Shown here: piece after piece, positions 2,301 through 23,569 of the stretch
How the letters are laid out: every line of letters starts with the position of its first letter
How positions within the stretch are numbered: the first letter of the stretch is position 1
Source of the DNA: an uncultured archaeon
Lineage (GTDB): Archaea > Hadarchaeota > Hadarchaeia > Hadarchaeales > Hadarchaeaceae
Assembly (NCBI GenBank): GCA_937921735.1
Contig: CAKZTQ010000015.1
Coordinates: 1 to 64,000 of the forward strand
Length of the DNA stretch: 64,000 bases
Reading direction: 5' to 3'
Notes under the pieces: model-generated
What the model saw: the letters and a program-made list of their open reading frames with translations, nothing else
Database searches by the model: none
Told to the model about the DNA's origin: nothing
Position numbers and translations under genes: made by a program

Positions 2301-2315
2301 TATAACAGTGTTATA
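2301..2315. promoter_or_regulatory. Palindromic operator TATAACAGTGTTATA (site 1), in the copA / tRNA-Cys divergent promoter
   Basis: Perfect 6-3-6 inverted repeat overlapping TATA-like TTTATATA at 2297-2304; motif recurs 5 times in intergenic DNA. Confidence 0.8.
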
Positions 2316-2330
2316 CTTATATCTATCGAA

Positions 2331-2404
2331 GCCGGGGTAGCCTAGTGGTAAGGCGGTGGGCTGCAGACCCGCTTACGCCGGTTCAAATCCGGCCCCCGGC
2401 TCCA
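2331..2404 (+). tRNA. tRNA-Cys(GCA), CCA encoded, no intron
   Basis: Cloverleaf: GCCGGGG/CCCCGGC acceptor, GCCT/AGGC D-stem, GTGGG/CCCGC with loop CT-GCA-GA, GCCGG-TTCAAAT-CCGGC T-arm, U73, CCA. Confidence 0.97.
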
Positions 2405-2413
2405 GGCGATCGC

Positions 2414-2866
2414 ATGAAGATATTGTTCGCGCACGCAGATTATTTGAACTATAGGGTCAAGGAGAGGACGAAGTTCGCGGAGGAAGTGGGGGAGGACCGC
2501 AAGGTCGGCAACATGGAAGATCCTCTGATAGCATTCACCTGCGTGGAGAAGGGAGATGAAGAGTTAAATGGCATAGCCGGAGAAGCCTTGGCGGAAATCA
2601 AAGACGTAGCAGATAGGGTCAGGGCCAAGAACATCGCCCTCTTCCCATTCGCCCACCTTTCGTCCGACCTGGCATCGCCCACATTCGCTGTGAAGCTGCT
2701 GATGGACCTTGAAAACAGGTTGAAGGCGGAAGGCTACCTAGTCCTGAGGGCACCATTCGGATGGTATAAGGTGTTCGAGTTCAGGACCAAGGGGCACCCG
2801 CTGGCGCTTCTATCTCGATCCATACCGAATCGGACAAAACAGTCCCATTCACCGACATCTGAATAG
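2414..2866 (+). CDS. Stand-alone archaeal ThrRS editing-domain protein (DTD-like fold), paralog 1
   Basis: MKILFAHADY...PFAHLS...APFGWYK...KGHPL; start at ATG 2414, 9 nt after the tRNA CCA. Confidence 0.88.
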   Translation: MKILFAHADYLNYRVKERTKFAEEVGEDRKVGNMEDPLIAFTCVEKGDEELNGIAGEALAEIKDVADRVRAKNIALFPFAHLSSDLASPTFAVKLLMDLENRLKAEGYLVLRAPFGWYKVFEFRTKGHPLALLSRSIPNRTKQSHSPTSE

Positions 2867-2885
2867 GAGTTCATCCAACGGCAGC

Positions 2886-3200
2886 TTATTTCTCCTTTCT
2901 TAGTATCGCACAGAGGTTGCAGTACATTTCGGCTATCTGGATCCCCCGCATCCCTCTAACCGCGATGGCATCCGAAAGTTCCCTCAAGGACTTCATGAAG
3001 TCGCTCCTCTTGAGAAGTGCCTTAGCGCGGCTTGTCCCCCGAAGCGACCTGAGGTACTGGCTGACGGCGGGCTGCGTGATGCCGAGCCTCTTGGCCACCT
3101 CGATCTGATTCAAGTTGTGCCTCTCGACCAGGTCCTTGACGAGGATGGCCCTTATGGTCGGGAGGACGTCCTTAAATATCTCTTCGCAGGGGGGCTTCAT
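2886..3200 (-). CDS. HTH transcriptional regulator (COG2522-like) with N-terminal PCE and C-terminal CxxC
   Basis: MKPPCE...NQIEVAKRLGITQPAVSQYL helix-turn-helix...YCNLC. Confidence 0.85.
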   Translation of the reverse strand: MKPPCEEIFKDVLPTIRAILVKDLVERHNLNQIEVAKRLGITQPAVSQYLRSLRGTSRAKALLKRSDFMKSLRELSDAIAVRGMRGIQIAEMYCNLCAILRKEK

Positions 3201-3208
3201 TTTTATCA

Positions 3209-3223
3209 AATAACGTTGTTATA
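3209..3223. promoter_or_regulatory. Palindromic operator AATAACGTTGTTATA (site 2), upstream of the regulator gene
   Basis: One mismatch to consensus; lies between a minus-strand TATA-like TTTAATA (3231-3237) and the start codon. Confidence 0.75.
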
Positions 3224-3306
3224 AGGAATGTATTAAACTTTATGATGTAAGTGAAAGAACCACTAAATCACCTCGGAGAGAAAGAATAACTAAAGGCGGG
3301 GCGCAC

Positions 3307-4203
3307 ATGAGGATATTCGGTACTTCCGTTGAAGGGTTTCTAAACATCCATCTTTACGAGGAACCGTCGGCGAAGAACCTTAAGCTCGATGAAATTGCCG
3401 GCTACTTGAGGGAGAAACTCGGAGAAATACCAATTGATGTGAGAAAACCGTTTATCAGGGCAAGTTCTGAAGATGAGGCAAATATCCTCGCCCGAAAGCT
3501 TGCCGAAACGAAAGTCCGCGACTTGGCGAACCCCAACGTGCGCCTCCAACCCCTCCCCGGCGAAGTCGAGTTCGAGCGAAAGCTCCTACGGGACCCCAAC
3601 CTCAGGCTCACGGGAGTGCTCTACGATGGATTCAGGCTCCAAGCGGTGCTCCGAGAACTTTTGCCTGCGGATGAGTTCAGCATTGGGCACGCCCATATCG
3701 TCTTCACGAACCGCCTCTTTGGCACTTTTGACGAGGGTGACCGCAGGTACCACGCCCGAGTAAGCGTTTATGGCTTCCCTTCCATCATCTCAACGACCGG
3801 CATCGTTGAGGCTCCAGCCAAACCTAAGGAGTTCTACCTCCTCAAGCAGCAATATGCCGCACTCGGGATGTCCGATGTGCCGCTCGAGGTCCTCAAGGAG
3901 AAATTCATGGGCAGATTCGTCGATTACGACGATGAGAGGCTCACTGAGATCATGAAAGGTTATGTGATGCAGGCAATTTTCTATCATGTTTTTGGCGACC
4001 CTTTTTGCGAAAAAGTTACCTGTAGATTGTTCAATAGCCATTGGCAGGAAGAAGTTATCAAATCACAGCTTGAGCCTAGGGAAAAAGAATTCTGCGATCG
4101 CCACCACGAGATGTTAAGCAAGCTTAGGCAAACCCTTGAGCATGGTATCTACCATAGGATTGTCTGTTTTGACCGTCACAAGTTAGCTAACGTTTCAAGG
4201 TAG
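3307..4203 (+). CDS. Conserved archaeal protein, archaemetzincin-like C-terminus without HExxH
   Basis: 298-aa ORF; C-terminal YHVFGDPFCEKVTCRLF...FCDRH resembles the archaemetzincin Cys pattern. Confidence 0.6.
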   Translation: MRIFGTSVEGFLNIHLYEEPSAKNLKLDEIAGYLREKLGEIPIDVRKPFIRASSEDEANILARKLAETKVRDLANPNVRLQPLPGEVEFERKLLRDPNLRLTGVLYDGFRLQAVLRELLPADEFSIGHAHIVFTNRLFGTFDEGDRRYHARVSVYGFPSIISTTGIVEAPAKPKEFYLLKQQYAALGMSDVPLEVLKEKFMGRFVDYDDERLTEIMKGYVMQAIFYHVFGDPFCEKVTCRLFNSHWQEEVIKSQLEPREKEFCDRHHEMLSKLRQTLEHGIYHRIVCFDRHKLANVSR

Positions 4204-4850
4204 CCCTTAAAGTCCTCCTCAAAGGTACGAACTTCTAAAATCCCCTGAAAACCTTTTTGAATTGCCCTTTGAATTTCGGGGTCCGCGATAAGCCGGTCGA
4301 GCACCTCAGGCTCCGCCCTAGTCCGCGGGTATTTTGGCGTGGCAAAACAGCAGCCGGCGTGTACCTCATGCCAGATGCCCAGCTCCTTGGAGATCTTCCC
4401 TATTTCCTCCTTGTCGAGGCCGAGCAAAGGCCTCAGGATCGGGAATTTTATCCCTTTTGAGGTTACCCCGAGATTCGTCAATGTCTGAGTCGCCTTCTGT
4501 CCTAGCGATTCCCCCGTTACTATGCCCGCTGCCCCCTCGAGCTCGCAGATGGCTTCAGCAACCTTGAACATGTTTTTTCTGCACGCCAGGCAAGCGTAGC
4601 TCCTCTTTTCCCGATTTTTCAGGATGGCGTCCAAAACCTTGGCCCAAGGGTAGACAATGACCTTCTTGAACCTGGCCTTTTTTCTGAGGTCTTTCAACAC
4701 TTTCATGGCGACGAGAAAGGTTTCTTCACAAGTGAAGGGATAGAGACAAAAGTGGAGGGGGATGACATTGAACCTTCTGGCGGCTAAGGCGCAGGCAACT
4801 GGCGAATCGATGCCTCCAGAGACCAAACAAACGACATCCTCCTTCCCCAT
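4176..4850 (-). CDS. ThiI-family PP-loop sulfurtransferase, catalytic domain only (no THUMP)
   Basis: SGGIDS PP-loop, CLAC, TGESLGQKATQTL, RPLLGLDKEEI, GCC. Confidence 0.85.
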   Translation of the reverse strand: MGKEDVVCLVSGGIDSPVACALAARRFNVIPLHFCLYPFTCEETFLVAMKVLKDLRKKARFKKVIVYPWAKVLDAILKNREKRSYACLACRKNMFKVAEAICELEGAAGIVTGESLGQKATQTLTNLGVTSKGIKFPILRPLLGLDKEEIGKISKELGIWHEVHAGCCFATPKYPRTRAEPEVLDRLIADPEIQRAIQKGFQGILEVRTFEEDFKGYLETLANL

Positions 4851-4880
4851 GTCAATCGACCTAGCTCCAAATGCCTGATA

Positions 4881-5600
4881 TCACCCTTTGCCAACGCGTT
4901 CGGCTTCCCCCAGTAGGATGAGCCCTAAGCCGGCGGTTTCCTTGTCAGGCGCCTCCGCCGCGAAGAACAGTGCAAGATATCTAGCGGTTTGCAGGGCTTT
5001 CTCGAATTCATTCCGCCCCCCTTCCAGTTTCAATGCTTCGATGGCGTTTCTTAAGTTTGAATAACCCTCGATGAGAAGTTCAGCGTTAGGAAGCTCATCG
5101 AGCCGCACGGTCAAGGCCTTTTCCTTAACCATGCACCTCCCGCACTTCCCAGAGGCGCAATTGATGGTCGGCTCCCCGCAAACATCGCAGATGACCGCTC
5201 CCCAAACTAGGCGGGATATGGAGTTGGCCACCTTCAGGATTTCCTCCTTATCCAGTGCCCGCTGTATTTTGAGCTTACCGTTTTTGAAGATGCTTATCTC
5301 TCGCCCCTTGAACTTAATCTTGGCGACCCCGAGGCTTGGGCTGCATTTTAGCTCCGCGAACCTCCTTCGGTGAACTTCAAGCATTGAACAGAGGGTGGCG
5401 GGGTCTATCAGCTGGGCTTTGGCTTCATCCCTTTTTAGCTCCACGTCGGCCATCAACTTTCCCCTCTCTGAAACGCAGGGCTGTACGTAGAGCACGGCCT
5501 CCTTTCTGACCTTCAAAAGGTCTCTGACCTCGACCCCTTTTGAAAGGGAGCACTCATCCTTAAATTTGGGAACGATTATCTGGGTGAGTTTTTCGGCCAT
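4881..5600 (-). CDS. Hypothetical Cys-rich protein, putative Fe-S/Zn binding
   Basis: CDVCGEPTINCASGKCGRC motif; tightly coupled downstream of iscU; start taken at ATG 5600. Confidence 0.65.
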   Translation of the reverse strand: MAEKLTQIIVPKFKDECSLSKGVEVRDLLKVRKEAVLYVQPCVSERGKLMADVELKRDEAKAQLIDPATLCSMLEVHRRRFAELKCSPSLGVAKIKFKGREISIFKNGKLKIQRALDKEEILKVANSISRLVWGAVICDVCGEPTINCASGKCGRCMVKEKALTVRLDELPNAELLIEGYSNLRNAIEALKLEGGRNEFEKALQTARYLALFFAAEAPDKETAGLGLILLGEAERVGKG

Positions 5601-5610
5601 CTCTATGCCC

Positions 5611-6036
5611 TTACGTATGAGGTTGCTTTTCGCCTTCAACATTTTTCTGCCTATACTCCTGTATCGCTTTTTTCAACGTCTTGTACGCCAGAACCGCGCA
5701 GTGCATCTTCAGCGCGGGCAGGCCGCCCAGCGCGCTCGAGATCTCCTTAATCGAGAGCTTCTCAGCCTCATCCACGGTTTTCCCCTTAACCAGCTCGGTC
5801 ACGATCGAGCCCGTAGCGATGTTAGCCGCGCAGCCAAAGGAGAGGAACTTTGCATCCACGATTTTGTCATTTTCTATCTTCAGCGACATCTGCATCATGT
5901 CCCCACATTGAGCATCTCCTTCAGTTGCCGTGACCGTTGGATTCTCCATCTCACCGACATTCTTCGGATTTCTGAATAGCTCGATCACCTGCTGTGTGTA
6001 CTTAAGTAGGCTCCTTTCGGTGTACTCAACCGGCAT
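5611..6036 (-). CDS. iscU: Fe-S cluster scaffold IscU/NifU-N
   Basis: NPKNVG, CGD, FGC, LPALKMHC; three conserved Cys. Confidence 0.93.
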   Translation of the reverse strand: MPVEYTERSLLKYTQQVIELFRNPKNVGEMENPTVTATEGDAQCGDMMQMSLKIENDKIVDAKFLSFGCAANIATGSIVTELVKGKTVDEAEKLSIKEISSALGGLPALKMHCAVLAYKTLKKAIQEYRQKNVEGEKQPHT

Positions 6037-6045
6037 TTGCCTCCC

Positions 6046-7218
6046 TCAAAAGGCCCCTGGTTTTATAGGGCTTATCTTCCTGAGGTTATCGATCACCCTC
6101 GGAAGCACTTCTAGCACGTATTCTATCTCCTCTGCAGTGTTATACCTGCTCAATGTGAACCTTATCGCCCCGTGCGCAACTTCAGGTTTAACCCCTATCG
6201 CCGTCAGAACGTGGCTGGGCTCGAGCTTTCGTGTAGAACATGCTGAACCAGTTGCAACTGATATGCCGTTGAGGTCGAGGTGAAGCAGCACCGACTCCCC
6301 TTCGACGTACTTGAATGAGTAGTTCACGTTCGCTGGGCTTCTTTTATCTCCCCTTGGCCCGTGCAGCATCACATGCTGAATTTTTTCTTCAATCCCGGCC
6401 ATCAGCTTGTCCCTTAACTTTCGCATGTGTTCGACATTTTTTTCGAAACCGTCAAACGCAAGTTCAGCAGCCTTCCCGAAGCCCACTATTGCTGGGACGT
6501 TTTCCGTACCAGGTTTTAGCTTGAACAGAGAGATGTAGCCGTAAGTTATCGGTTCGATGGGGGTATTTTCCCGCAGGTAGAGGGCACCCACTCCTTTAGG
6601 GCCATGGATCTTATGGGCACTGATGCTCATGGCGTCGATGCTCATGCGCTCTACATCTATCGGGACCCTTGCATAAGAGGCGGCCGCATTGACGTGGAAA
6701 TAGATCTTATGTTTTTGCTCCCGCAGTATTTTCCCTATTTCCTTGATCGGCTCTATTGTTCCTATTTCATCGTTGACGTGCATCACGCTTACGAGGATCG
6801 TCTTTTCATTTATCAAATTTTGTAGTTGGTCGAGGTTGACGAATCCTTGAGGATCGACATCTAAGTAGTCTATCCTAAACCCATCCCTTTCTAATTTCTC
6901 GCACACCCGCAGGACTGAGGGGTTCTCAACCCTCGTCGTGATTATGTGATTACCCTTTTCTCGGTTGGCGTAGGCTATCCCGCGTATGGCGAGGTCATTT
7001 GACTCGGTGGCACCGGAGGTAAAAATTATTTCCCCCGGTTTTGCATTTATCGTCTTCGCGATGATTTCTTGGGTCTTCTCGACGGCATCGGCAGCTTCCT
7101 GCCCGAGCGAATAGACGAAGATTGGGTGGCCAAACTTCTCCGTAAAATAAGGCAACATCGCATCTATGACTTCCTCGGCAACTTGGGTTGTAGTGCCATT
7201 ATCTAGATAAACCTTCAT
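6046..7218 (-). CDS. iscS: IscS/NifS-family cysteine desulfurase homolog with an atypical PLP pocket
   Basis: YLDN, FTSGATES, SAHKIHGPKG, GTEN, GSACS; EH reads EN and DAxQ reads NAAA. Confidence 0.88.
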   Translation of the reverse strand: MKVYLDNGTTTQVAEEVIDAMLPYFTEKFGHPIFVYSLGQEAADAVEKTQEIIAKTINAKPGEIIFTSGATESNDLAIRGIAYANREKGNHIITTRVENPSVLRVCEKLERDGFRIDYLDVDPQGFVNLDQLQNLINEKTILVSVMHVNDEIGTIEPIKEIGKILREQKHKIYFHVNAAASYARVPIDVERMSIDAMSISAHKIHGPKGVGALYLRENTPIEPITYGYISLFKLKPGTENVPAIVGFGKAAELAFDGFEKNVEHMRKLRDKLMAGIEEKIQHVMLHGPRGDKRSPANVNYSFKYVEGESVLLHLDLNGISVATGSACSTRKLEPSHVLTAIGVKPEVAHGAIRFTLSRYNTAEEIEYVLEVLPRVIDNLRKISPIKPGAF

Positions 7219-7237
7219 AGCCGTCCCTTAGTTCATT

Positions 7238-8284
7238 TTAATAACTTATGATTTTATTTAAGATACTCTTGGCCCTCTTTTCAGAATCCGTATTATGTAC
7301 GAGGGCTCTGCCTGAGGGAGCGATCGCAATCGAATATTTGTCGTAGTCAACGATCAATAAGTGCTCTGTCAATTTTTTTATCTGAAATTCCGGATTTCTT
7401 TTCAGTTCACCTGCTAACTCCCGCAGATCCAATTTCAAGTCGACTTTTGGGGATATCTGGATTGCGTTCCTTCCGCACAAAGTGCTGATGATCGATTGTT
7501 TTATTTCTTGTGTAAGTAAGGGGAACTCCTTACGTACGCACACGGAGCAGTTTGGATCTTTTTCGACATCAACAGTATCGAAATGCAAAGAGGAGAGATC
7601 AAAACATAGGAGTTTTGATTCCAAATTATCCCCAAAACCCACAAAATACTTGATGACTTCCACAGCCTCGATGATGCCGACCATGCCCGGCGCAGGACCC
7701 AAGACCCCAGCTACCTCGCATGTCGGCAAGGACCCGGGTTCGGGCATCTCGGGAATTATGCACTTCAGACATGGAGTCTTCCCTGGGATTATCATGCTGA
7801 GCACGCCATAATCTCCTATCGCCGCCCCGTAGATGAAGGGTACATTGTTTTTGACGCAGATTTCATTGAGTAGGAACCTTGCCTCCATGTTGTCCGTGCC
7901 GTCCAAGACGATGTCGACATCCTTCACGAGCCTTTCAGCCGTAGTTGGATTAAAGTCCTCAAACACCGCATCCAGGACGATGTCGGAGTTGACCTTCTCC
8001 AACTTCTCCTTGGCCGCGATCGCTTTTGGCTTGTACTCCTTAGCATCCTCTTCATTATATAGGATTTGCCTCTGGATGTTGCTCAACTCCACATAGTCCC
8101 TATCGATCAACCTTATGTAACCAATTCCGGCAGATGCTAGGTAGACCGCCGCAGGGCTTCCAATTGCCCCTAAGCCGAGTATTGCGACCCTGCCTTTTTT
8201 CAGCTTCTCTTGGCCCCCTTCTCCAATTTTTGGGAAAACTATCTGTCTTGAGTACCGTTCTTTCTCGATCTCCGTAAGCACCAT
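7238..8284 (-). CDS. ThiF/MoeB/UbaA E1-like adenylyltransferase with C-terminal extension
   Basis: RYSRQI, GLGAIG, ELSNIQRQ, DGTDN, PCLKC, PTCE, CSVC. Confidence 0.92.
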   Translation of the reverse strand: MVLTEIEKERYSRQIVFPKIGEGGQEKLKKGRVAILGLGAIGSPAAVYLASAGIGYIRLIDRDYVELSNIQRQILYNEEDAKEYKPKAIAAKEKLEKVNSDIVLDAVFEDFNPTTAERLVKDVDIVLDGTDNMEARFLLNEICVKNNVPFIYGAAIGDYGVLSMIIPGKTPCLKCIIPEMPEPGSLPTCEVAGVLGPAPGMVGIIEAVEVIKYFVGFGDNLESKLLCFDLSSLHFDTVDVEKDPNCSVCVRKEFPLLTQEIKQSIISTLCGRNAIQISPKVDLKLDLRELAGELKRNPEFQIKKLTEHLLIVDYDKYSIAIAPSGRALVHNTDSEKRAKSILNKIISY

Positions 8285-8306
8285 ATGACCACTCCTGCCA
8301 TGGTAT

Positions 8307-8321
8307 TATAACAATGTTATA
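8307..8321. promoter_or_regulatory. Palindromic operator TATAACAATGTTATA (site 3), upstream of the E1-iscS-iscU operon
   Basis: Perfect 6-3-6 repeat overlapping the 3' side of a minus-strand TATA-like TTATATAT. Confidence 0.8.
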
Positions 8322-8372
8322 TATAAGAATTATTTAACGATGGAATCGGGGAAAAGGAAGACATTTTATCGT

Positions 8373-9557
8373 TTATTTAATGATATTTATCCCATATTTC
8401 TTCGCTATATCTTGGAACGCCTGAGCAAGATATCTGATTTGGTCCCAAGTCAAACCGTAGGTGTTCAATTTCCAAGTCCTCGTTGCTCCAGCGAATTCTC
8501 CAACGATTTTCCTATCCCTTAACTCGTCGCTGAAGAAGAACCCCCTCCTCTTATGTGTTCGAGCGATCTTATCGAAGCTTTCTGTCGTATCCACTTTTGT
8601 GAGCGTATGTTTTCTGGGCATCTCGCTTAATACCTTATTCCCTTCGATTTTCAGAAACTCGTCCATAAGGTAATTTATCTTTCTGACCTCCTCGTCCCAG
8701 TGCTTCACCCTTTCCTTGATAGCGGGGAAAGAAGCCATCATTGCGATCAGGTTGGCGCCCATCAATGTGCAACCGAGCATTTCAACTTCCTTAATACCGA
8801 ACTTTCTTTTCGTCACATCACCGATCATCTGAGTGGTCCTGAACACTATATCTGCCCATTCTTTGGTGCTCGCGACTATGCCGGAAGGCGCGGGAGAAGC
8901 AAAACTCTTGTGGCCGGAGCCGACCAAGAAATCTGCCCCTATTTCTTTCCCGTTAATGGGCATCACGCCTATAGAATAGGCACAGTTGCACAGAAATGGG
9001 ATGTCGTATTCCTTGGCGACTTTGGCGATTCCATAGACATCATGTTCATTCCCAAACATGTAGTCAAAGTGATCGATCATTATCAATTTTGGCAGCTTTC
9101 CGGTTTCCTTCTTAACCTCCTCTATTTTTCGAGCGGTCGCCTCAGCCGTGACAATATTTTTTTCATTCAACGGGACCTCCTTGACGATTCCACCTGCATC
9201 TTCAACAGCCAAGAATTCAGTATAGTGGGCGAGCGAGGAAACGATTACTGAATCCCCTTTTTCAACAAGCGAGGACACGACAGCTTGAAAGCCCCTCCTA
9301 GCCCCCGGAACAACCCTAGCTTGATCCATCCCCAAAAATTCTGCTAGCTCAATGTGAAATTCCTCGATCGGCGGCCTTTTGATCTTATCCAGCCTAAACG
9401 GTTTCCGGCACCAATCGCAGGTCGAGTACCCATCCCCGTAAGCGATCATCGCTTTCATAGCTTCTGGTGTGAGCCGCCCCCCTGGCTGAATGGGGTGAAT
9501 ATTTATAAATAGCTCCTCTCTCGCCCTAATTTCGATGTCATCTATGATATTTCTCAT
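8373..9557 (-). CDS. pscS: O-phosphoseryl-tRNA:Cys-tRNA synthase (SepCysS)
   Basis: INIHPIQPGGRL, GDGYSTCDWC (CxxC), AHYTE, SGHKS (PLP Lys), EMLGCT. Confidence 0.93.
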   Translation of the reverse strand: MRNIIDDIEIRAREELFINIHPIQPGGRLTPEAMKAMIAYGDGYSTCDWCRKPFRLDKIKRPPIEEFHIELAEFLGMDQARVVPGARRGFQAVVSSLVEKGDSVIVSSLAHYTEFLAVEDAGGIVKEVPLNEKNIVTAEATARKIEEVKKETGKLPKLIMIDHFDYMFGNEHDVYGIAKVAKEYDIPFLCNCAYSIGVMPINGKEIGADFLVGSGHKSFASPAPSGIVASTKEWADIVFRTTQMIGDVTKRKFGIKEVEMLGCTLMGANLIAMMASFPAIKERVKHWDEEVRKINYLMDEFLKIEGNKVLSEMPRKHTLTKVDTTESFDKIARTHKRRGFFFSDELRDRKIVGEFAGATRTWKLNTYGLTWDQIRYLAQAFQDIAKKYGINIIK

Positions 9558-9736
9558 CTTATCAGCTCCTTCTCAATGACATCCAAGCTTTGCCTCACGC
9601 TTTCAACTATTTCCCTCACTTTTTTCCTCTGCTCGTCGTTGAGCTTGTAAGTGGGTTTGGTCTCCCTGAAGATTTGTCTTAGATCCGTCAGAGCAAATAA
9701 TGCCTCGAAAATTTCTCGGACAGCTTTCTCGCTCAT
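9554..9736 (-). CDS. Small helical protein, probable truncated SepCysE N-terminal homolog
   Basis: 60 aa, two predicted helices, ATGA overlap with pscS, GAGGCG/GGTGAGG RBS; truncated SepCysE homologs are known to be coupled to SepCysS. Confidence 0.65.
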   Translation of the reverse strand: MSEKAVREIFEALFALTDLRQIFRETKPTYKLNDEQRKKVREIVESVRQSLDVIEKELIR

Positions 9737-9800
9737 AACGCCTCACCTTAATTTGGATATCGTTAGTTAACTATATCTATCATTTTGAAGCACCTATCTT

Positions 9801-9815
9801 TATAACAGCGTTATA
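9801..9815. promoter_or_regulatory. Palindromic operator TATAACAGCGTTATA (site 4), between the divergent SepCysS operon and editing-domain paralog 2
   Basis: Perfect 6-3-6 repeat abutting TTTATAAA (9816-9823). Confidence 0.8.
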
Positions 9816-9870
9816 TTTATAAAGCTTGTGGTACGTCTAAAAATTAGGTACGTAACAGGGGGAAAAAGCT

Positions 9871-10293
9871 ATGAAAATGTTACTTATTCATTGCGATTAC
9901 TTTTCGTATCTTACAACTACGCGGACGAAGTTGGCCGAGGAAATCGCCGGCGGATGTAAGAGCTGTGCTATTAAAGATGCATTAGTTATTTTTGTGACCG
10001 CCGAGAAATGCGACGCGGAAAATCCGAGCAAGGTAGTTTACAAAGGCATTGAGGAGATTACTGCCCACGCTAAACAGTTAGGCGTAAAAAACTTAGTCAT
10101 ATATCCATTTGTCCATTTATCCGAGCAGATAAGTGCTCCAGATGTTGCTGTGAGGATAATGAAAGAGCTTCACGAAGGACTCAGATCCTTAGGCTATTCG
10201 GTGGATAAGGCGCCATTCGGCTGGGAAAAAGTTTTCTCCCTAACTTCAAAAGGGCACCCACTGGCGGAGTCATCAAGGACCATTCGGCCATAA
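9871..10293 (+). CDS. Stand-alone archaeal ThrRS editing-domain protein, paralog 2
   Basis: MKMLLIHCDY...YPFVHLS...APFGWEK...KGHPLAESSRTI. Confidence 0.88.
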   Translation: MKMLLIHCDYFSYLTTTRTKLAEEIAGGCKSCAIKDALVIFVTAEKCDAENPSKVVYKGIEEITAHAKQLGVKNLVIYPFVHLSEQISAPDVAVRIMKELHEGLRSLGYSVDKAPFGWEKVFSLTSKGHPLAESSRTIRP

Positions 10294-10296
10294 TGA

Positions 10297-10587
10297 TCAT
10301 CCCCCAGCAACGGTGGGGATCAGCCTGACCTCGTCTCCGTCCTTCAATTTCGTGCCAAGTCCCTGAAGGTTGCGGATATCCCGCCCGTTGACAAATACGT
10401 TGATAAATCTACGGAGTTTGCCTGTCTTCTCGTCGATGACCCGCTTCTCGAATTGAGCTCCGTATCGACGGATGAGGGCCGCTAAGAGGTCGTTAACCGT
10501 TTCACCATTGACATCAATCGTCGCTGCATCCGCGTCGGTTACGTTTTTGATCATCGCGGAAAACTTTACGTTTACCTTTACCACCAC
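10297..10587 (-). CDS. MoaD/ThiS/SAMP ubiquitin-like sulfur carrier
   Basis: RRFINVFVNG...LKDGDEV...VAGG C-terminal diglycine; GTG start just after the upstream stop. Confidence 0.9.
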   Translation of the reverse strand: MVVKVNVKFSAMIKNVTDADAATIDVNGETVNDLLAALIRRYGAQFEKRVIDEKTGKLRRFINVFVNGRDIRNLQGLGTKLKDGDEVRLIPTVAGG

Positions 10588-10588
10588 A

Positions 10589-11854
10589 TCACGCCCCCTT
10601 AAACCATTTGACGCCAGGTGTGCATAACTTATTGGCAAGTTTTCTGAATTCCTCAATCGTTGGTGAGATTTTGTGAGATCTCTGAAGCCCGCCGGCGATG
10701 GCTTCTTGGGCCTTCAGACCGTTACCGGTGATTAAGAGCACCACTCGCTCATCATAGTCGATTTCGCCAGCTTCGATAAGTTGTTTTAACGTCGCCACAG
10801 CCACGCCACCGGCTGGCTCAGTATAGATACCCTCGGTCTTGGCGAGCAGCCTGACGCCTTCCAATATCTCATCATCGTTCGGCGCCCGGCCAGTGCCTTT
10901 GGTCGCACGGATCGCCTGCAATGCATAATACCCGTCGGCCGGGTCGCCTATTGCGAGTGACTTACATATCGTGTTTGGCGCCTCAACTGGGATTATCTCA
11001 TCAGAACCTTTCAGCAACGCCTGCACGATCGGCGAGCATCCTTCGGGCTGCGCAGCTGAAATTCGCGTGCTCCAATCATCAATAAGGCCTACCTCCTCGA
11101 GTTCTCTGAGGCCGCGCCAAATGGCGTGCAGGAGCGCCCCAGAGGCGGTGGGGACTATGACGTGATCAGGTGCCTGCCAGCCAAGTTGCTCGCAGACCTC
11201 AAATGCCAAGGTTTTCGAACCTTCAACATAGTACGGGCGAAGATTGATGTTTGCAAACGCAATGTTGCTAGTAAACGCGATCTCGGTCGCTAATCGATTC
11301 ACATCGTCATAGGTGCCATCGACGGTGATGAGATGCGCACCGTATGCGAGCGTTTGCGAGATCTTGGAGGCTTCCAAACCTTGCGGGATGAAGGCGAAAC
11401 AAGGCAATCTAGCTTTGGAGGCATGGGCAGCCATCGCTGCTGAGAGGTTTCCCGTTGAAACGCAGCCGACCGCAGGTGAGCCGAATTCGAGCGCTTTCGA
11501 TACTGCGACGCTAGCGGGCCTATCTTTAAATGAAAAAGTTGGGTTCACTGAGTCATTCTTGATGTAACATTCTTTAAGCCCAAGCTTTTCAGCGAGATTT
11601 TCCGCCTTCAATAGGCGTGTAAAACCGGCCCCAATATCGATTATTAAATCGGGATTGTTAATGGGCAAAAGCTCTTTGTACCGCCAAAGGGTTGACGGGC
11701 CGCTGGCAATCGACTCTCGAGATACATCGTTAGCTATTTTGTTATAATCATAAGTAACACTCAAAGGGCCGAAACACCGGCTACACGTAGATACCAATCC
11801 CAAGGGATAGCTCTTGCCACACTCCCTACACTTCAATTCGATCGCATAACTCAA
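10589..11854 (-). CDS. Threonine synthase-like fold-II PLP enzyme
   Basis: N-terminal CRECG..CSRC, LWRY, NPTFSFKDR, STGNL, EGSKT, ITGNGLK; start approximate (TTG 11854). Confidence 0.85.
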   Translation of the reverse strand: MSYAIELKCRECGKSYPLGLVSTCSRCFGPLSVTYDYNKIANDVSRESIASGPSTLWRYKELLPINNPDLIIDIGAGFTRLLKAENLAEKLGLKECYIKNDSVNPTFSFKDRPASVAVSKALEFGSPAVGCVSTGNLSAAMAAHASKARLPCFAFIPQGLEASKISQTLAYGAHLITVDGTYDDVNRLATEIAFTSNIAFANINLRPYYVEGSKTLAFEVCEQLGWQAPDHVIVPTASGALLHAIWRGLRELEEVGLIDDWSTRISAAQPEGCSPIVQALLKGSDEIIPVEAPNTICKSLAIGDPADGYYALQAIRATKGTGRAPNDDEILEGVRLLAKTEGIYTEPAGGVAVATLKQLIEAGEIDYDERVVLLITGNGLKAQEAIAGGLQRSHKISPTIEEFRKLANKLCTPGVKWFKGA

Positions 11855-11923
11855 GCCAACCCCTATCACCTTCTTTCGATGGTTATATTTAAAAATGTTT
11901 TCATTACTGATAGTTATAAAAAA

Positions 11924-11938
11924 TATAACACGGTTATT
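11924..11938. promoter_or_regulatory. Palindromic operator TATAACACGGTTATT (site 5), upstream of thrC-like-moaD
   Basis: One mismatch to consensus; extra GTTATA half-sites at 11882-11887 and 11913-11918. Confidence 0.7.
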
Positions 11939-13280: not shown

Positions 13281-14057
13281 ATGATAGCACCAGTACTGAT
13301 GCTAATAGGCTTGTTCATCGCGACCATCTTTTCCATGGTCGGCTTGGGCGGCGGGGTCTTCATCGTGCCGATGCTCGTGCTCGGCTTCAAGCTCCCGACC
13401 CAGAGCGCCGTTGGGATAAGCTTAGCAACCATGACCTTCACCACCCTCTCGGCGACCATCGCGTACGCGCGCCAAGGAAGGATCAACTACAAGATCGGCG
13501 TGCTACTTGACATCCTCGACGTGCCGGGAGCGGTCGTCGGCGCATATGCGACGACGCTCATCGCCTCTAATTGGCTCGCGAGCTTGTTTGGGGTCCTGCT
13601 GATCGCGATCTCCGTCCTCATGTTCAGGAAGAAGGAGGTCGCTGGTCCATCCCCAAACGAGCCAACTGGGCGGTGGGGCATGTCCGCCCGCGTTGTGGCC
13701 CTCTGCCTGCTCGCGAGCCTCGCCAGCGGAGTGGTGGCGGGCATGTTCGGCGCGGGTGGGGGTACCGTCGACGAGTCGGTCATGATCCTGGCCCTCGGCA
13801 TGCCTGCCCACGCCGCGGCTGCCACCTCGATGTTCGGGATGGCCCTCACAAACTCAGCGGCGGCGATCTCCCACGGCGTGCTGGGCAACATCATGCCCGA
13901 GTACGCGATTCCCCTCGTAATCGGGGGCATAGCGGGGGCGCAACTGGGTCCACGGCTTTCCAAGCGGATGGCCGGTCGGACGCTCAGGAGGACCCTCGGG
14001 GTGATCTTCATCCTGATAGGCCTGCGGATGATCCTCATCCCTTACGTCGCGGCTTGA
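13281..14057 (+). CDS. TauE/SafE (TSUP) family sulfur-compound transporter
   Basis: GLGGGVFIVP and GAGGG repeats, about 8 hydrophobic segments. Confidence 0.88.
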   Translation: MIAPVLMLIGLFIATIFSMVGLGGGVFIVPMLVLGFKLPTQSAVGISLATMTFTTLSATIAYARQGRINYKIGVLLDILDVPGAVVGAYATTLIASNWLASLFGVLLIAISVLMFRKKEVAGPSPNEPTGRWGMSARVVALCLLASLASGVVAGMFGAGGGTVDESVMILALGMPAHAAAATSMFGMALTNSAAAISHGVLGNIMPEYAIPLVIGGIAGAQLGPRLSKRMAGRTLRRTLGVIFILIGLRMILIPYVAA

Positions 14058-14112
14058 GCTCGCTCGGGCTTTATAAGCGCCCGGGAGAAACCCGTCAACG
14101 GCAGGGGTCCCG

Positions 14113-15810
14113 ATGGAGCTCGACGAAATCGGCTCGCGAGCGCTACGATGGGCGCTCGCAAATGCCCTCGAGCACGAGGGCAAAGCTGACCTCAAGGCGG
14201 TCATCCGGAAACTCATGGCGGAGATGCCCGAGTTGCGCCCCCGAGCTAAGGAGGTCAGGCAAATCGTGGAGCAGGTCGTGGAGGAGGTGAACCGCCTCTC
14301 GCCAGCGGAGCAGCTGGCCAAGCTCGAGGAGCTCGGACCGCTTGAGGTCGTTCGCAAGAGGGAAGCGAAGGGCCTGCCCGAGTTGCCGGGCGTCGATAGA
14401 TATCCGAAGGTGGTGACGCGCTTCGCCCCCAACCCGAACGGGCCGCTGCACATAGGTCACGTTCGAGCGGCGCTGTTGAGCCATGAGTACGCTCGGATGT
14501 ACGGGGGTAAGTTCATCCTGCGCTTCGAGGACACCAACCCGGCAAACGCCGTGCTCGAGATGTACGACCTCATCAGGCGGGACCTACGATGGCTGGGCAT
14601 AGAATGGGACGAGGAGCACATGCAGTCGGATAGGCTGGAGATCTACTATAGATATGCCGAAGGGCTCATCTCCAGCGGCAAGGCATACGTCTGCACCTGT
14701 GATGCCCCATCTTTCAGGCGCCTCCGCGACCGAGGCGAGCCATGCCCCTGCCGGGAGCTGCCCGCGGACGAGCAGATAGGGCGCTGGAGGGGTATGCTCG
14801 GGGGCGAGTTCGGCGAGGAGAAGGCGGTGGTGAGGATCAAGACGGATTTGAGGCATCCCAACCCGGCGGTGCGCGATTGGCCGGCGCTCAGGGTGGTGAC
14901 GTCCCCCCATCCCAGGGTGGGCGAGAGATACAGGGTGTGGCCGCTGTACAACTTCTCCGTCGCCATCGACGACCACGAGATGGGGGTGACGCACGTCATA
15001 AGGGGCAAGGAGCATCTGGTCAACGAGATGAGGCAGAGGACGTTGTTCGAGCATCTCGGCTGGACCCCTCCTGAGGCGCTACAGTACGGCAGGCTTACGA
15101 TGGCGGGCGCGATGTTGAGCAAGACTCAAACCATAAGGGGCGTCAGGGAGGGGAAGTTTTTGGGCTACGATGACCCCCGCCTCGCGACCATAGCGGCGCT
15201 CAGGCGTAGGGGCTTCTCGCCCGAGGCGGTGAGGCAGGTGATCTTGGACCTAGGGCTCACGCCCGTGGATGCGGCGCTCAGCTGGGAGACGCTCTACGCT
15301 TACAATCGCAGGCTCATAGATGCCAAGGCGAACCGCTACTTCTTCGTCGCCTCTCCCGTGGAGCTCCTAGTCCGCGGTGTGCCCAGCATCGAAGAGGTAC
15401 GCCTGCGCCTGCACCCGAGCTATCCGGAGAGGGGTGAGCGCGTGCTCCCGCTGCTGAGAGAGGGCGACGTCCTAACCGCATACCTCGCCGGGGAGGATGC
15501 CTCGCACCTCGAGGTGGGGACCATCTTCCGCCTCAAGGACCTGATGAACGTGGAACTCAGGTCCAAAGGGCCCCCGCTGGAGGGGGACTTCCGGGGGCTG
15601 GAGCTCATGGACGTGCCCAAGCTGCAATGGGTGTCCGCGGGAGGGGTGGAGGTGGAGGTCTTGATGCCCGATGCCTCCCTCGTCCGCGGGCTGGCGGAGC
15701 CCGCCGTGGCTGGCCTCGGGATCGGCGAGGTGGTGCAGTTCGAGCGCTTCGGGTTCGTGAGGGTGGACTCGCTGCGGCCGAGGATCGCGGTGGTCTACGG
15801 CCATAGGTAA
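14113..15810 (+). CDS. gltX: Glutamyl-tRNA synthetase (archaeal)
   Basis: [31 protein letters not shown]. Confidence 0.96.
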
Positions 15811-15892
15811 AATTAAATACCCCTCACCAACCAAAATCAATGAAAGCCATGGCACGGTGAATGATGAGGAAGATCCGAAGGAGGTGCCTACC

Positions 15893-16264
15893 GTGGCGAA
15901 ACCGATATACGTGAGGTTCGAGGTGCCCAAGGAGCTCGCGGACAGGGCGTACGAGGCGGTCGAGAGGGCGCGCGACACCGGCAAGCTCCGCAAGGGCACG
16001 AACGAGACGACCAAGGCGGTCGAGCGGAAGAAGGCCGCGCTCGTGGTGATAGCGGAGGACGTGGAGCCGGCCGAGATAGTCGCCCACCTGCCAGCGCTCT
16101 GCGAGGAGAAGGACGTGCCATACATATACGTGCCCAGCAAGCGCGAGCTGGGGGCGGCGGCGGGCATAGACGTCTCCGCCGCGGCGGTGGCGATAGCCGA
16201 GGCCGGAGAAGCCGAGGAGCTCGTGAAGGAAATCGTGGACAGGCTCAAGGAAATCAAGAAGTGA
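15893..16264 (+). CDS. rpl7ae: Ribosomal protein L7Ae
   Basis: [17 protein letters not shown]; GTG start after GGAGGTG RBS. Confidence 0.96.
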
Positions 16265-16269
16265 GGGGA

Positions 16270-16482
16270 ATGGAGGCGGAGCTAGGCATACCGGCGGAGG
16301 TCATAGAGATCCGCGGGCGGACGGGCATCACAGGCGAGATACTCCAGGTGAAGTGCAGGATACTTGAGGGCCGGGACAAGGGCAGGATCATCACCCGCAA
16401 CGTCAAGGGCCCCGTGAGGGTCGGCGATATCCTGATGCTCAGGGAGAGCGAGAGGGAGGCACGCGAGATAAAGGTGCCGTAG
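16270..16482 (+). CDS. rps28e: Ribosomal protein S28e
   Basis: GRTG...[15 protein letters not shown]. Confidence 0.96.
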
Positions 16483-16671
16483 ATGCCCGCCGCGCGGAAG
16501 TGCTCCTTTTGCGGTGGCAGGGTCGAGCCCGGGACGGGTTTGATGTTCGTCAAGCGCGACGGCACCATCCTGTTCTTCTGCTCGAGCAAGTGCGAGCGAA
16601 ACCATCGCCTAGGCAGGAAGCCGCATAAGGTTCGCTGGACCGAGCACTTCAGGAGGGCGAGGGGGAAGTAG
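16483..16671 (+). CDS. rpl24e: Ribosomal protein L24e
   Basis: CSFCG..PGTG..FCSSKC..WT. Confidence 0.96.
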   Translation: MPAARKCSFCGGRVEPGTGLMFVKRDGTILFFCSSKCERNHRLGRKPHKVRWTEHFRRARGK

Positions 16672-17106
16672 GTGGAGCGAACCTTCGTGATGATAAAACC
16701 TGACGCCACCTCGAGGGGTCTCATAGGGAAGGTCATCGCTAGGTTGGAGGAAGAGGGTCTCAGGGTAACGGCGATGAAGATGCTCCTCATCGATAAGGCT
16801 ACGGCGGAGCGACTATACGAGGTGCATAGGGGCAAGCCCTTCTACGATGGCTTGGTCGAGTACATCACGTCGGGGCCCGTGGTGGCGATGGTGCTCGAGG
16901 GCGAGGACGCGATCGCGAGGGTGAGGAGGGTGATAGGTGCGACCGATCCCTCGAAGGCGGAGCCGGGGACCATAAGGAGGGAGTTCGGGCTCGGCATACG
17001 GGAGAACGTCGTCCACGCCGCCGACTCGCCCGAGAACGCCAGGCGGGAGATCGGGATATTCTTCAAAGAATCGGAGATCCTCCCTTGGAAGGGTGACTTG
17101 GGGTAA
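16672..17106 (+). CDS. ndk: Nucleoside diphosphate kinase
   Basis: ERTFVMIKPD, PGTIR, NVVHAADS. Confidence 0.96.
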   Translation: MERTFVMIKPDATSRGLIGKVIARLEEEGLRVTAMKMLLIDKATAERLYEVHRGKPFYDGLVEYITSGPVVAMVLEGEDAIARVRRVIGATDPSKAEPGTIRREFGLGIRENVVHAADSPENARREIGIFFKESEILPWKGDLG

Positions 17107-17122
17107 AAATTGGTCAGGCAGT

Positions 17123-17244
17123 TGTCCTATTTTAGGACATTACCGATAAGGGAGTTCAAAGCTTTGGGGAAAAGCGACGCCCCATTCCCATTTACGACGC
17201 CTGTCCTATTTGAGACACCCGAGCCCACTGTCCTATTTAGGACA
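17123..17244. repeat. Three copies of a palindrome TGTCCTA-N2/3-TAGGACA
   Basis: 17123-17139 TGTCCTATTTTAGGACA; 17202-17217 TGTCCTATTTGAGACA; 17229-17244 TGTCCTATTTAGGACA. Confidence 0.85.
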
Positions 17245-17312
17245 TCAAATTTTTCGCGGCGCCGGCCTCAGCTATAAATCGAAGGCGGCCGCCATAAAAT
17301 TGGGCGGGAAAG

Positions 17313-19106: not shown

Positions 19107-19200
19107 CAGGGATGGCCATTTTCGTGGTCAATGGGTTAACGAAGGCATGGGTAGCCTTAAAGGGGGATATGAAAAATGTTTACGGTTGAAAGGTGATCCG

Positions 19201-19590
19201 ATGGCGTTCAAGGTCGTGGTCTCCGATCCGGAGACGGGCAGGAGCTACCAGCTCGAGGCCAAGGAGCCGGAGGCGCGGAGGCTCGTGGGCCTAAACATAG
19301 GCGACAAGTTCGACGGGGCCATCGTTGGGCTGCCCGGCTACGAGCTCCAGATCACCGGCGGAACGGACGCGGACGGCTTCCCCATGCGCCCGGATATCGC
19401 GGGGCCGGGGCGAACGAGCGTCCTGCTCTCGAGCGGGCCGGGCTTCAAGCCCAGGAGGAAGGGGGAGCGGAGGCGGAGGCGGGTACGGGGACGTGTGATC
19501 TCGGACGCCATCGTGCAGGTGAACGCCAAGATCGTGAAGAAGGGCGAGAAACCCATCGAGGAGCTCGTTGCCCCTCGGCCGGAAAAGTGA
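19201..19590 (+). CDS. rps6e: Ribosomal protein S6e
   Basis: FKVVVSDP, ITGGTDADGFPM, GERRRRRVRG. Confidence 0.95.
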   Translation: MAFKVVVSDPETGRSYQLEAKEPEARRLVGLNIGDKFDGAIVGLPGYELQITGGTDADGFPMRPDIAGPGRTSVLLSSGPGFKPRRKGERRRRRVRGRVISDAIVQVNAKIVKKGEKPIEELVAPRPEK

Positions 19591-19724
19591 ACTTCTTCGC
19601 GGTTTCGGCGGCGAACGTTCGAACCTCGCTCAAAAACGGGGAGTGAGGGTTTTAGAACTTACCAATTCGATCGAAGGCATCAGCTAAATAAGAGCCGAGG
19701 CTATGATTAGGAGGTGGTGTCGAG

Positions 19725-20948: not shown

Positions 20949-21135
20949 GATGAACCTCCTTGCCGCCCCTTGACACACGTATGTCGCGCGCGCCTGCGGC
21001 GCAACTTTGGATGAAAGGCCCATCGCAAGCGATGACCACTAAGTTAAAAGGGTGGCCCACGCCATCTCAAGCGAGGACCTCCCGATCAAAAACGCTGCGA
21101 GCGGCCCAGCCGACGCGGGGAAGTCGGGTGGAACC

Positions 21136-21528: not shown

Positions 21529-21532
21529 TGAC

Positions 21533-23527: not shown

Positions 23528-23569
23528 GGGTTTATATTTGGCGCGCGTGAGATGCTCAGGGGATAAAAG

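Follow-up and report, generated by a model that had tools for sequence, protein, structure and literature searches.

Two free-standing ThrRS-type editing domains in a putative cysteine and iron-sulfur regulon of an uncultured Hadarchaeon

Editing-domain genes, tRNA-Cys and a repeated operator

Two small genes near one end of the window, the 64,000-nt stretch of contig CAKZTQ010000015.1 from an uncultured archaeon of the Hadarchaeaceae, encode single, free-standing copies of the editing domain (ED) known from archaeal threonyl-tRNA synthetase (ThrRS), a domain with a DTD-like fold. The first, ED1, has its ATG 9 nt 3' of the tRNA-Cys(GCA) gene on the same strand, while ED2 diverges from a 60-aa open reading frame (ORF) that overlaps the start of a SepCysS gene (Table 1). 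The original prediction, made from the sequence alone, had placed one paralogue beside tRNA-Cys and the other divergent from SepCysS, and this is what is found. Both proteins match PF08915 (tRNA-Thr_ED) over profile positions 1-137 of 137, ED1 with 148.2 bits (E 2e-43) and ED2 with 143.4 bits (E 6.3e-42) against a cut-off of 30.2, and PF08915 is their sole match in the profile search, which bears out the call of two stand-alone ThrRS editing domains. In printed alignments they match solved ThrRS editing domains at E 1e-34 to 2e-38 with 35-45% identity. Against NF011500, the profile of crenarchaeal Ser-tRNA(Thr) hydrolase, they score 114.4 and 93.7 bits, below the cut-off of 362, with the match limited to positions 1-137 of 387; the anticodon-binding domain is thus absent from both by this comparison. 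The form fused N-terminally to a class II core and anticodon-binding domain is a separate gene on contig C21, and neither protein is a DTD2, PF04414 being unmatched. Since more than 40 homologues start at the same MKILF, the ED1 start is set at 2414 and not at an upstream GTG that overlaps the tRNA. With so short a spacer, 3' processing of the tRNA would leave a nearly leaderless ED1 mRNA.

ED1 and ED2 lie in what appears from gene content and promoter motifs to be a cysteine and iron-sulfur (Fe-S) regulon of ~12 kb, marked by five operators. The palindrome ATAAC-N3-GTTAT has five matches at 2301-11938 where 0.02 are expected, and no shuffle reached five. Its stricter core, ATAACNNNGTTAT, occurs six times in the assembly (1.06 Mb in 60 contigs, 83% complete), five of them within the island; the sixth, inside a 949-aa ORF on a 3.5-kb contig (C44), is regarded as chance. 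The promoters that carry the palindrome are those of tRNA-Cys with ED1, the divergent helix-turn-helix (HTH)/DUF6775 pair, the ThiF-IscS-IscU-orf253-ThiI operon, the divergent SepCysSn-SepCysS2/ED2 pair and the pair of a ThrC-like enzyme and a MoaD/SAMP-like protein. An upstream operator common to both editing-domain genes had been noticed earlier, and it is found here as TATAACAGTGTTATA and TATAACAGCGTTATA, with three more copies at 3209, 8307 and 11924. Among the relatives, which are 41 genomes of the same order, this one included, with loci annotated by BLASTP against the window proteins, the palindrome occurs in 12 of 19 loci (28 sites). It also occurs in eight of 11 further type B (ED2-like) or B-like loci from other lineages; these 11 are the new ones among 18 loci from a scan of species-representative genomes with the type B alignment, five others being apparently already in the relatives' set.

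The tRNA-Cys gene itself appears, from the position of the palindrome, to sit under a specific transcription-factor operator. Here and in eight relatives' loci (L042, L048-L054) a palindrome 10-35 nt in front of the tRNA-Cys 5' end overlaps the likely TATA region. A single copy of tRNA-Cys(GCA) was detected in the assembly (28 tRNAs in total by ARAGORN; one BLAST match in this genome, G000). The order of tRNA-Cys followed by an ED less than 100 nt away recurs in L042, L048, L050, L051 and L052, and in L046 the tRNA gene follows 44 nt after a type B ED. Overall, tRNA-Cys is present in nine of the 15 relatives' loci with a full free-standing ED and in seven of the 11 further type B loci, and all ten island tRNA-Cys genes (10/10) have U73 and G37. 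U73 has been argued to be read by the tRNA-Thr-ED domain (PMC8762117). Some relatives have, besides the island tRNA-Cys gene, a different one elsewhere or next to SepCysS2 (G007 C1:49938-50012 versus L048 8350-8424; in G019, L046 and L049), and the island may bring its own tRNA-Cys.

Table 1. Features of the island in window coordinates (residues of ED1 and ED2 in P. abyssi numbering)
Feature	Position	Strand	Description
Operator O1	2301-2315		TATAACAGTGTTATA; 16-30 nt upstream of the tRNA-Cys gene
tRNA-Cys(GCA)	2331-2404	+	U73, G37, encoded CCA; ARAGORN, Rfam RF00005 68.8 bits
ED1	2414-2866	+	150 aa; free-standing ThrRS-type editing domain, subfamily A; Leu at the Glu134 position; His83, Tyr120, Lys121 kept
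Small HTH protein	2886-3209	-	107 aa; three invariant cysteines (N-terminal PCE, C-terminal CxxC); candidate operator regulator
Operator O2	3209-3223		AATAACGTTGTTATA; between the HTH and DUF6775 genes
DUF6775/DUF7001 protein	3307-4203	+	probable metallopeptidase family
ThiI-like PP-loop protein	4176-4850	-	operon 4176-8284
orf253	4881-5642	-	Cys-rich; operon 4176-8284; CDVCGEPTINCASGKCGRC
IscU	5611-6036	-	operon 4176-8284
IscS-type cysteine desulfurase	6046-7218	-	operon 4176-8284
ThiF/MoeB	7238-8284	-	first gene of operon 4176-8284
Operator O3	8307-8321		TATAACAATGTTATA; upstream of the ThiF-IscS-IscU operon
SepCysS2	8373-9557	-	second SepCysS paralogue; TIGR02539 419.6 bits, cut-off 365
60-aa ORF	9554-9736	-	overlaps SepCysS2 start; likely split SepCysSn adapter peptide
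Operator O4	9801-9815		TATAACAGCGTTATA; divergent SepCysSn/ED2 intergenic region
ED2	9871-10293	+	140 aa; free-standing ThrRS-type editing domain, subfamily B; Glu at Tyr120, Val at Ala82; Glu134 kept; family-specific Cys8, Cys29-x-x-Cys32
MoaD/SAMP-like sulfur carrier	10297-10656 (as listed)	-	ends in GG
ThrC-like enzyme	from 10589, within 10297-11938	-	threonine-synthase family, pyridoxal phosphate (PLP)-dependent; N-terminal zinc-ribbon-like CxxC...CxxC
Operator O5	11924-11938		upstream of the ThrC-like enzyme's likely true start

Pocket residues, subfamilies and candidate substrates

ED1 and ED2 were aligned to the P. abyssi domain (1y2q), whose numbering is used throughout. ED1 reads PFAHLS, PFGWYK and GHPLAL, with Leu in place of Glu134 (codon 2807-2809); ED2 reads PFVHLS, PFGWEK and GHPLAE, with Glu in place of Tyr120 (codon 10225-10227) and Val in place of Ala82. 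The motifs read by eye in the original prediction (HPLAL in the first paralogue; HPLAE, WEK and PFVH in the second) are confirmed by this alignment, and both proteins keep His83 (PFAH, PFVH) and Lys121 (WYK, WEK). As described by Ahmad et al. 2015 (PMC4491819), the amino-acid pocket of the P. abyssi domain has exactly two side chains, Tyr120 and Glu134, of which Glu134 is supplied by the other monomer and holds the substrate alpha-amino group; within 6 Å of the scissile bond there are seven side chains (Pro80, Phe81, Ala82, His83, Tyr120, Lys121 and Glu134'). The cross-subunit role of Glu134 also figures in Fig. S4 of PMC5424206. The pocket pair is therefore incomplete in each protein, through Leu134 in ED1 and Glu120 in ED2, and calling the two changes complementary is geometrically apt. 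The same account (PMC4491819) reports that H83A and K121M inactivate the domain, and that Y120A, E134A and the double mutant retain Ser-tRNAThr hydrolysis and Thr-tRNAThr rejection, with an in vitro k_obs of 0.143 per min for the double mutant against 0.209 per min for the wild type. A changed specificity, which had been proposed from the motifs, is accordingly not established by the substitutions alone; an active deacylase specific for Ser could carry them, and on their own they are no proof of a new substrate.

Turning to the rest of the genome, a third PF08915 domain is N-terminal in a complete ThrRS on contig C21, ahead of a class II core and an anticodon-binding domain. The original prediction had asked whether the genomic ThrRS has its own editing domain and named the lack of one as part of what would refute it; the domain is there, with the canonical motifs YPYAHLS, FGWYKAF and KGHPLSE, so that refutation fails. 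ED1 and ED2 are not needed for tRNA-Thr, and the idea that they compensate for an editing-deficient ThrRS was rejected. It is very unlikely that the two are redundant Ser-tRNAThr trans-editors of the crenarchaeal ThrRS-ed kind that came to lie in a sulfur cluster by chance. Their close similarity to ThrRS editing domains would fit such a role, as would the Ser-tRNAThr activity of the P. abyssi domain stripped of its pocket side chains (PMC4491819), but the ThrRS here edits for itself, both proteins are without the anticodon-binding domain (114 and 94 bits versus 362 for NF011500), and the adjacency to tRNA-Cys and the common operator recur across lineages. Across the 41 genomes, PF08915 occurs in 39 and a ThrRS-linked copy in 38, including 13 of the 14 with free-standing copies. 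A replacement of D-aminoacyl-tRNA deacylase was likewise considered and rejected: a DTD2 gene (PF04414, 191 bits) lies on contig C11, so D-aminoacyl clearance is covered. The assembly also has SepRS (545 bits) and a second SepCysS of the common type on contig C39 (8534-9670), which scores 518 bits against 419 for the island SepCysS2, so the island copy is the extra paralogue. Profile searches of the 83% complete assembly found neither CysRS nor a CysK/M above cut-off.

The reading favoured here, with a probability of about one half, is that ED1 and ED2 trans-edit tRNA-Cys, most likely removing Ser. Each ED would form a dimer and act in trans as an aminoacyl-tRNA deacylase on U73-bearing tRNA-Cys, clearing a non-cysteine acyl group that arises as a by-product of the SepRS/SepCysS route. 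We infer both the tRNA substrate and the acyl group; Ser would be the best guess and could come from dephosphorylated Sep-tRNACys or from attack of water on the SepCysS intermediate. Such editing would be most important under scarcity of sulfur or Fe-S, with the regulon switched on, and the subfamily-specific pocket residues would tune rejection of cognate Cys instead of Thr.

Several known systems offer points of comparison. The crenarchaeal trans-editing ThrRS-ed, or Ser-tRNA(Thr) hydrolase, was reportedly described by Korencic et al. in 2004 (A. pernix structure 4rr6). Like it, ED1 and ED2 are free-standing proteins with this editing domain and are proposed to act in trans; unlike ED1 and ED2, which have 140-150 aa beside a complete ThrRS, it has retained the anticodon-binding domain (profile length 387) and is found in organisms whose catalytic ThrRS has no editing domain. 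YbaK is a free-standing Cys-tRNAPro deacylase with the INS/YbaK superfamily fold, unrelated to ED1 and ED2 in sequence and directed to a different tRNA; as a trans-editing factor whose substrate is cysteine on a tRNA, it would be a functional analogue if the EDs act on Cys-tRNA. With the N-terminal editing domain of archaeal ThrRS (P. abyssi 1y2q, M. jannaschii 4rrf), ED1 and ED2 share the Pfam family, His83, Lys121 and the PFG[WY] main-chain motif, and a predicted dimer may use the 118-136 interface as well, but they are unfused, have one pocket side chain changed each (Glu134 in ED1, Tyr120 in ED2) and stand in the context of tRNA-Cys, not tRNA-Thr. In the bacterial SepRS that carries tRNA-Thr-ED fused at its N-terminus (Mukai et al. 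2022, PMC8762117), the same domain has been recruited to the Sep-to-Cys pathway with U73 of tRNA-Cys as the presumed handle; that fusion acts in cis and has a completely conserved serine-recognition motif, whereas ED1 and ED2 are free-standing with altered pockets.

When archaea synthesise cysteine on tRNA, an intermediate is Sep-tRNACys, which can decay to Ser-tRNACys. To our knowledge, nobody has shown how such cells prevent mistranslation of cysteine codons or obtain free cysteine. Free-standing ThrRS-type EDs beside tRNA-Cys have been a published candidate for guarding cysteine codons since 2017. It had been suspected from the sequence that a SepCysS-ED linkage might already be noted, and it is: Mukai et al. 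2017 (PMC5424206) describe, for Hadesarchaea/MSBL1 and some methanogens, the coupling of free-standing tRNA-Thr-ED genes to tRNA-Cys, sulfur genes and clade VII SepCysS. They also report that the equivalent of M. jannaschii Glu135 varies (Val/Ile/(Ala) in MSBL1, Glu in Hadesarchaea DG-33-1) and that the methanogen proteins have a Cys-rich tail, and they put forward the Ser-tRNACys editing hypothesis; the theme returns in PMC8762117. ED1 and ED2 share with that published group the single domain devoid of an anticodon-binding domain and the coupling to SepCysS, tRNA-Cys and sulfur genes, seen in the window, the relatives and other lineages. The observation is thus real and non-random, and the general phenomenon, namely the link among SepCysS, tRNA-Cys and free-standing EDs, the variable Glu and the Ser-tRNACys hypothesis, is published. 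Relative to the accessible text of these two papers, what is new is the invariant subfamily B signature (Tyr-to-Glu and three cysteines), the common operator with its HTH protein, the co-variation with an IscS-IscU island and a genome with both A and B. Beyond the Mukai 2017 and 2022 proposals, a full-text literature search, with most subscription journals outside its reach, returned no functional study of SepCysS-linked free-standing EDs. The window offers a compact test case, with one copy per subfamily, one pocket side chain altered in each and a tRNA gene seemingly under one operator with Fe-S assembly genes; it could settle the function of the family and why pocket residues that are 'dispensable' are so strictly conserved.

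The replacements are fixed features of their subfamilies. In subfamily B (64 full-length sequences of 70 hits), Trp-Glu-Lys, His7 and Cys8 are present in 64/64, Glu134 in 63/64 and Val82 in 54/64; Cys29 and Cys32 are each present in 63/64 and both lost in one sequence, P0064; no variation is seen at His83, Lys121 or the main-chain motif 117-120. In subfamily A, 46 of 61 rows have Leu, Val or Ile at position 134 and the other 15 are canonical. Of 149 cluster representatives from the ED2 search, the 65 longer than 260 aa are ThrRS-like and keep Lys121 in 65/65, Glu134 in 65/65 and Tyr120 in 59/65, so the pocket deviations are confined to the free-standing forms. Such a fixed, subfamily-specific pocket replacement argues, from alignments, for selection on a modified pocket despite its dispensability in vitro. 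A quick maximum-likelihood tree of 67 domains separates the ThrRS-linked (support 96), type B (99), type A (88, one long-branch row apart) and type C (100) groups, and on this tree ED1 and ED2 are old paralogues and not a recent duplication.

The residue at position 134 bears on a possible recycling of tRNA-Cys from SepCysS dead ends, either unconverted Sep-tRNACys or the dehydroalanyl- or pyruvoyl-tRNACys left after beta-elimination, which is an unlikely role. Glu134 holds the alpha-amino group (PMC4491819), and its replacement by Leu, Val or Ile in 46/46 subfamily A members would be in keeping with an acyl group that is negatively charged or has no free alpha-amine; 'hydroxyacyl-tRNAs' are also allowed for in Text S1 of PMC5424206, and the operator common to the EDs and SepCysS2 points to co-regulation. 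However, the second carboxylate in the subfamily B pocket should repel phosphoserine, and hydrolysis of Sep-tRNACys beside SepCysS would be futile. Alpha-keto-acyl esters are moreover labile without an enzyme.

The invariant cysteines raise a further question, namely whether at least subfamily B is not primarily a hydrolase but binds the 3' end of tRNA-Cys, or serves as an adapter for sulfur relay or redox sensing that works with SepCysS2 or IscS through its three cysteines. Cys8 in every sequence, the joint loss of Cys29 and Cys32 in P0064 as their only absence, and the location of type B next to SepCysS2 here, in L054 and in six of 11 further loci would agree with this, as would the unrelated C-terminal Cys-rich tail of methanogen relatives (P0139, P0144; Text S1 and Fig. 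S4 of PMC5424206). Such a role is quite improbable, however, given that His83, Lys121 and motif 117-120 are invariant in subfamily B, as for an active deacylase. The AlphaFold2 monomer model of ED2 (18-row alignment) has a mean predicted local distance difference test (pLDDT) score of 78.7, with residues 11-30, including Cys29 and Cys32, averaging 53-55, so it does not give the cysteine geometry.

The complementary changes invite the idea of an ED1:ED2 heterodimer, which the original prediction also raised; it would give two specificities in one particle. From the published geometry, ED1 Tyr118/Lys119 with ED2 Glu133 would make a canonical site, and ED2 Glu119/Lys120 with ED1 Leu132 a doubly altered one, the cross-subunit role of Glu134 being documented in PMC4491819 and PMC5424206 (Fig. 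S4). Complex prediction for ED1(1-140) with ED2 scored 0.90 against 0.01 for the best of three controls, at a mark reached by 116 of 157 solved complexes and two of 215 mismatched pairs; family homodimers have been solved, so the pass may reflect likeness, and hetero- and homodimers are not separable by it. The runs agree in at least 94% of contacts with a partner pLDDT of at least 93, and place residues 118-136 at the interface with ED1 residue 132 touching ED2 residue 82, which likeness to the solved homodimers may also explain. Homologue pairs P0078/P0002 and P0087/P0007 (A/B), whose members agree in the length of their longest contig (125212 for the first pair, 14154 for the second), suggest that two more close relatives carry both types. 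Against this, A and B occur together in only one of the 14 ED-bearing related genomes, which makes an obligate heterodimer unlikely, and they form separate, well-supported old clades rather than a recent co-evolving pair. The GC content at third codon positions (GC3) of ED2 and SepCysS2 (0.47 and 0.55) is below that of ED1 (0.67), and the pairing may be an accident of gene transfer. The heterodimer is thus weakened to a doubtful proposal that cannot be the general mode, and the distribution argues that subfamilies A and B each work alone.

Distribution among relatives and the weight of the readings

Full-length free-standing EDs number 17 genes in 14 of the 41 genomes. Type A (ED1-like; GWYK and HPL[AS][VL]) occurs in nine genomes and type B (HC(D/N), CKSC, GWEK and HPL[AS]E) in five, each count including this genome; the very divergent type C (GYFLEF, GESLAK) occurs in two, and one genome (G026) has a canonical-type copy after a tRNA-Cys gene. 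Among the 14, only the present genome pairs A with B, while two others pair A or B with C. The neighbours of free-standing EDs always come from one set: HTH, IscS, IscU, orf253, ThiI, DUF6775, ThiF, SepCysS2, CopA and tRNA-Cys. A SepCysS match is present in 41/41 genomes (37 over cut-off), CysRS over cut-off in 5/41, CysK/M in 16/41, and an orthologue of the window IscS (at least 64% identity) in 17/41. In at least six genera the ED occurs where the IscS orthologue does and is missing where it is missing. Four genomes have the IscS island but no ED: they keep IscS, IscU and orf253, with tRNA-Cys and ED not nearby; three belong to one genus and have CysRS with two CysK/M copies, and the fourth, G040, has CysK/M. 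A free-standing ED occurs in none of the five genomes with CysRS against 14 of the 36 without it, but three of those five are one genus and nothing is concluded from this.

Three free-standing PF08915 proteins are without both Lys121 and Glu134: L045 8074-8484 (G007) and L049 7570-7980 (G019), both with GYFLEF/GESLAK, and L067 5197-5667, with GWFC/HPLASV. Each comes from a genome that also has type A or B, and for two of these proteins ThiI or IscS-like genes are close by. Two short stretches located a few kb from SepCysS genes look like decayed ED copies: L057 (G031 C7:20984-21112, profile 95-137) and L058 (G037 C16:24924-25013, profile 108-137, with an internal TGA).

Several observations weigh against the editing of Ser-tRNACys. 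Because free-standing EDs occur in 14/41 genomes and a SepCysS match in 41/41, the SepRS/SepCysS route runs without them. Type A or B is found instead in 13 of the 17 genomes with the IscS orthologue, and of the 24 without it one has an ED, the canonical-type copy of G026. This co-variation could itself stem from linkage alone, through gain or loss en bloc, and the genomes are not independent; the distribution shows a mobile island and does not prove functional dependence. At the level of residues, Lys121 is missing in four of the 46 subfamily A proteins, the two carboxylates in the subfamily B pocket are explicable only after the fact, and Ser/Thr discrimination in vitro does not depend on the side chains of Tyr120 and Glu134, so their substitution need not mean a new substrate. 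ARAGORN detected no tRNA-Thr gene among the 28 tRNAs of the 83% complete assembly. A search of sequencing runs listed no RNA run with this stretch; the one run that contains it is of DNA and may be its source.

The same distribution lends itself to another role, in which the EDs deliberately hydrolyse cognate Cys-tRNACys and free cysteine for IscS, to be used in Fe-S clusters and thiolation. This genome has SepRS and two SepCysS, with no CysRS and no CysK/M above cut-off, and IscS, in which we take the PLP-lysine and active-site cysteine motifs to be present, would need free Cys. The EDs vary with the IscS-IscU island (13/17 versus 1/24), concordantly in at least six genera, and not with SepCysS; the IscS-island genomes that go without an ED have CysK/M (three, of one genus, together with CysRS and two CysK/M copies, and G040), and Cys differs from Ser by a single atom. 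On the other hand, CysK/M is over cut-off in seven of the 14 ED-bearing genomes and just under it in an eighth, which means that a tRNA-independent route often coexists. Breaking down cognate Cys-tRNACys would compete with translation, sulfur amino acids may already be supplied by the ThrC-like/SAMP/ThiF genes of the same regulon, the co-variation may be linkage, and the genome is 83% complete. The release of cysteine from its cognate tRNA is therefore rather unlikely. Equally tentative is its fuller form, in which the EDs would be the missing release step of tRNA-dependent cysteine biosynthesis, as regulated Cys-tRNACys hydrolases co-induced with tRNA-Cys, SepCysS2 and IscS/IscU by an Fe-S- or sulfur-sensing repressor. 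If it held, tRNA-Cys would be a biosynthetic scaffold under its own transcription-factor operator.

Other genes of the island

The small HTH protein, which has only weak generic HTH matches in Pfam and NCBIfam, keeps its three cysteines invariant in an alignment of 16 orthologues, and its gene adjoins an ED or IscS in relatives. Longer orthologues carry an extra Cys/His-rich tail. The gene's own promoter holds the palindrome, and the gene is placed where iscR sits in bacterial isc operons. SurR of P. furiosus combines a CxxC redox switch with a GTT-N3-AAC site, in which the order of half-sites is opposite to that of the island palindrome. The HTH protein probably binds ATAAC-N3-GTTAT and may sense Fe-S or redox state. 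In the operon downstream, orf253 follows IscU in every island examined. It matched no Pfam or NCBIfam family, and its nearest Atlas cluster (score 0.91) is an unnamed family, mostly of Hadarchaeota; it may be a lineage-specific accessory of Fe-S assembly.

The 60-aa ORF in front of SepCysS2 matched no family in profile searches and is kept in that position in L049, L057, L061-63, L067 and L068. A split architecture of SepCysSn and SepCysS is described in PMC5424206, and by position and this published architecture the ORF is likely SepCysSn. As a lower-scoring paralogue (419 versus 518 bits) with a split 60-aa ORF in front, SepCysS2 would fit clade VII as PMC5424206 describes it. The 11 new type B or B-like loci, in six of which SepCysS2 adjoins the ED, come from metagenome-assembled genomes (MAGs) that carry the labels Hadarchaeota, Bathyarchaeia, Methylarchaceae, Methanomethylicota and Thermoproteota, and SepCysS2 shares 80-86% identity with its copies in MAGs under the names of other phyla. 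In GC3 the island genes ED2, SepCysS2 and ED1 (values given above) are lower than housekeeping genes, with 0.91 for the ThrRS editing domain and 0.88 for the common SepCysS; the module has likely been transferred horizontally or mis-binned. At the far end of the island, the placement of the ThrC-like enzyme and the MoaD/SAMP-like carrier under one operator with ThiF/MoeB suggests a protein-thiocarboxylate-dependent synthesis of sulfur amino acids. Past the island, the GC-rich stretch from ~13.5 kb was considered as rRNA and rejected, Rfam finding only tRNA in 1-22000; its GC content is 0.62-0.66 (window 13501-24000), against 0.47-0.50 at 4-12 kb.

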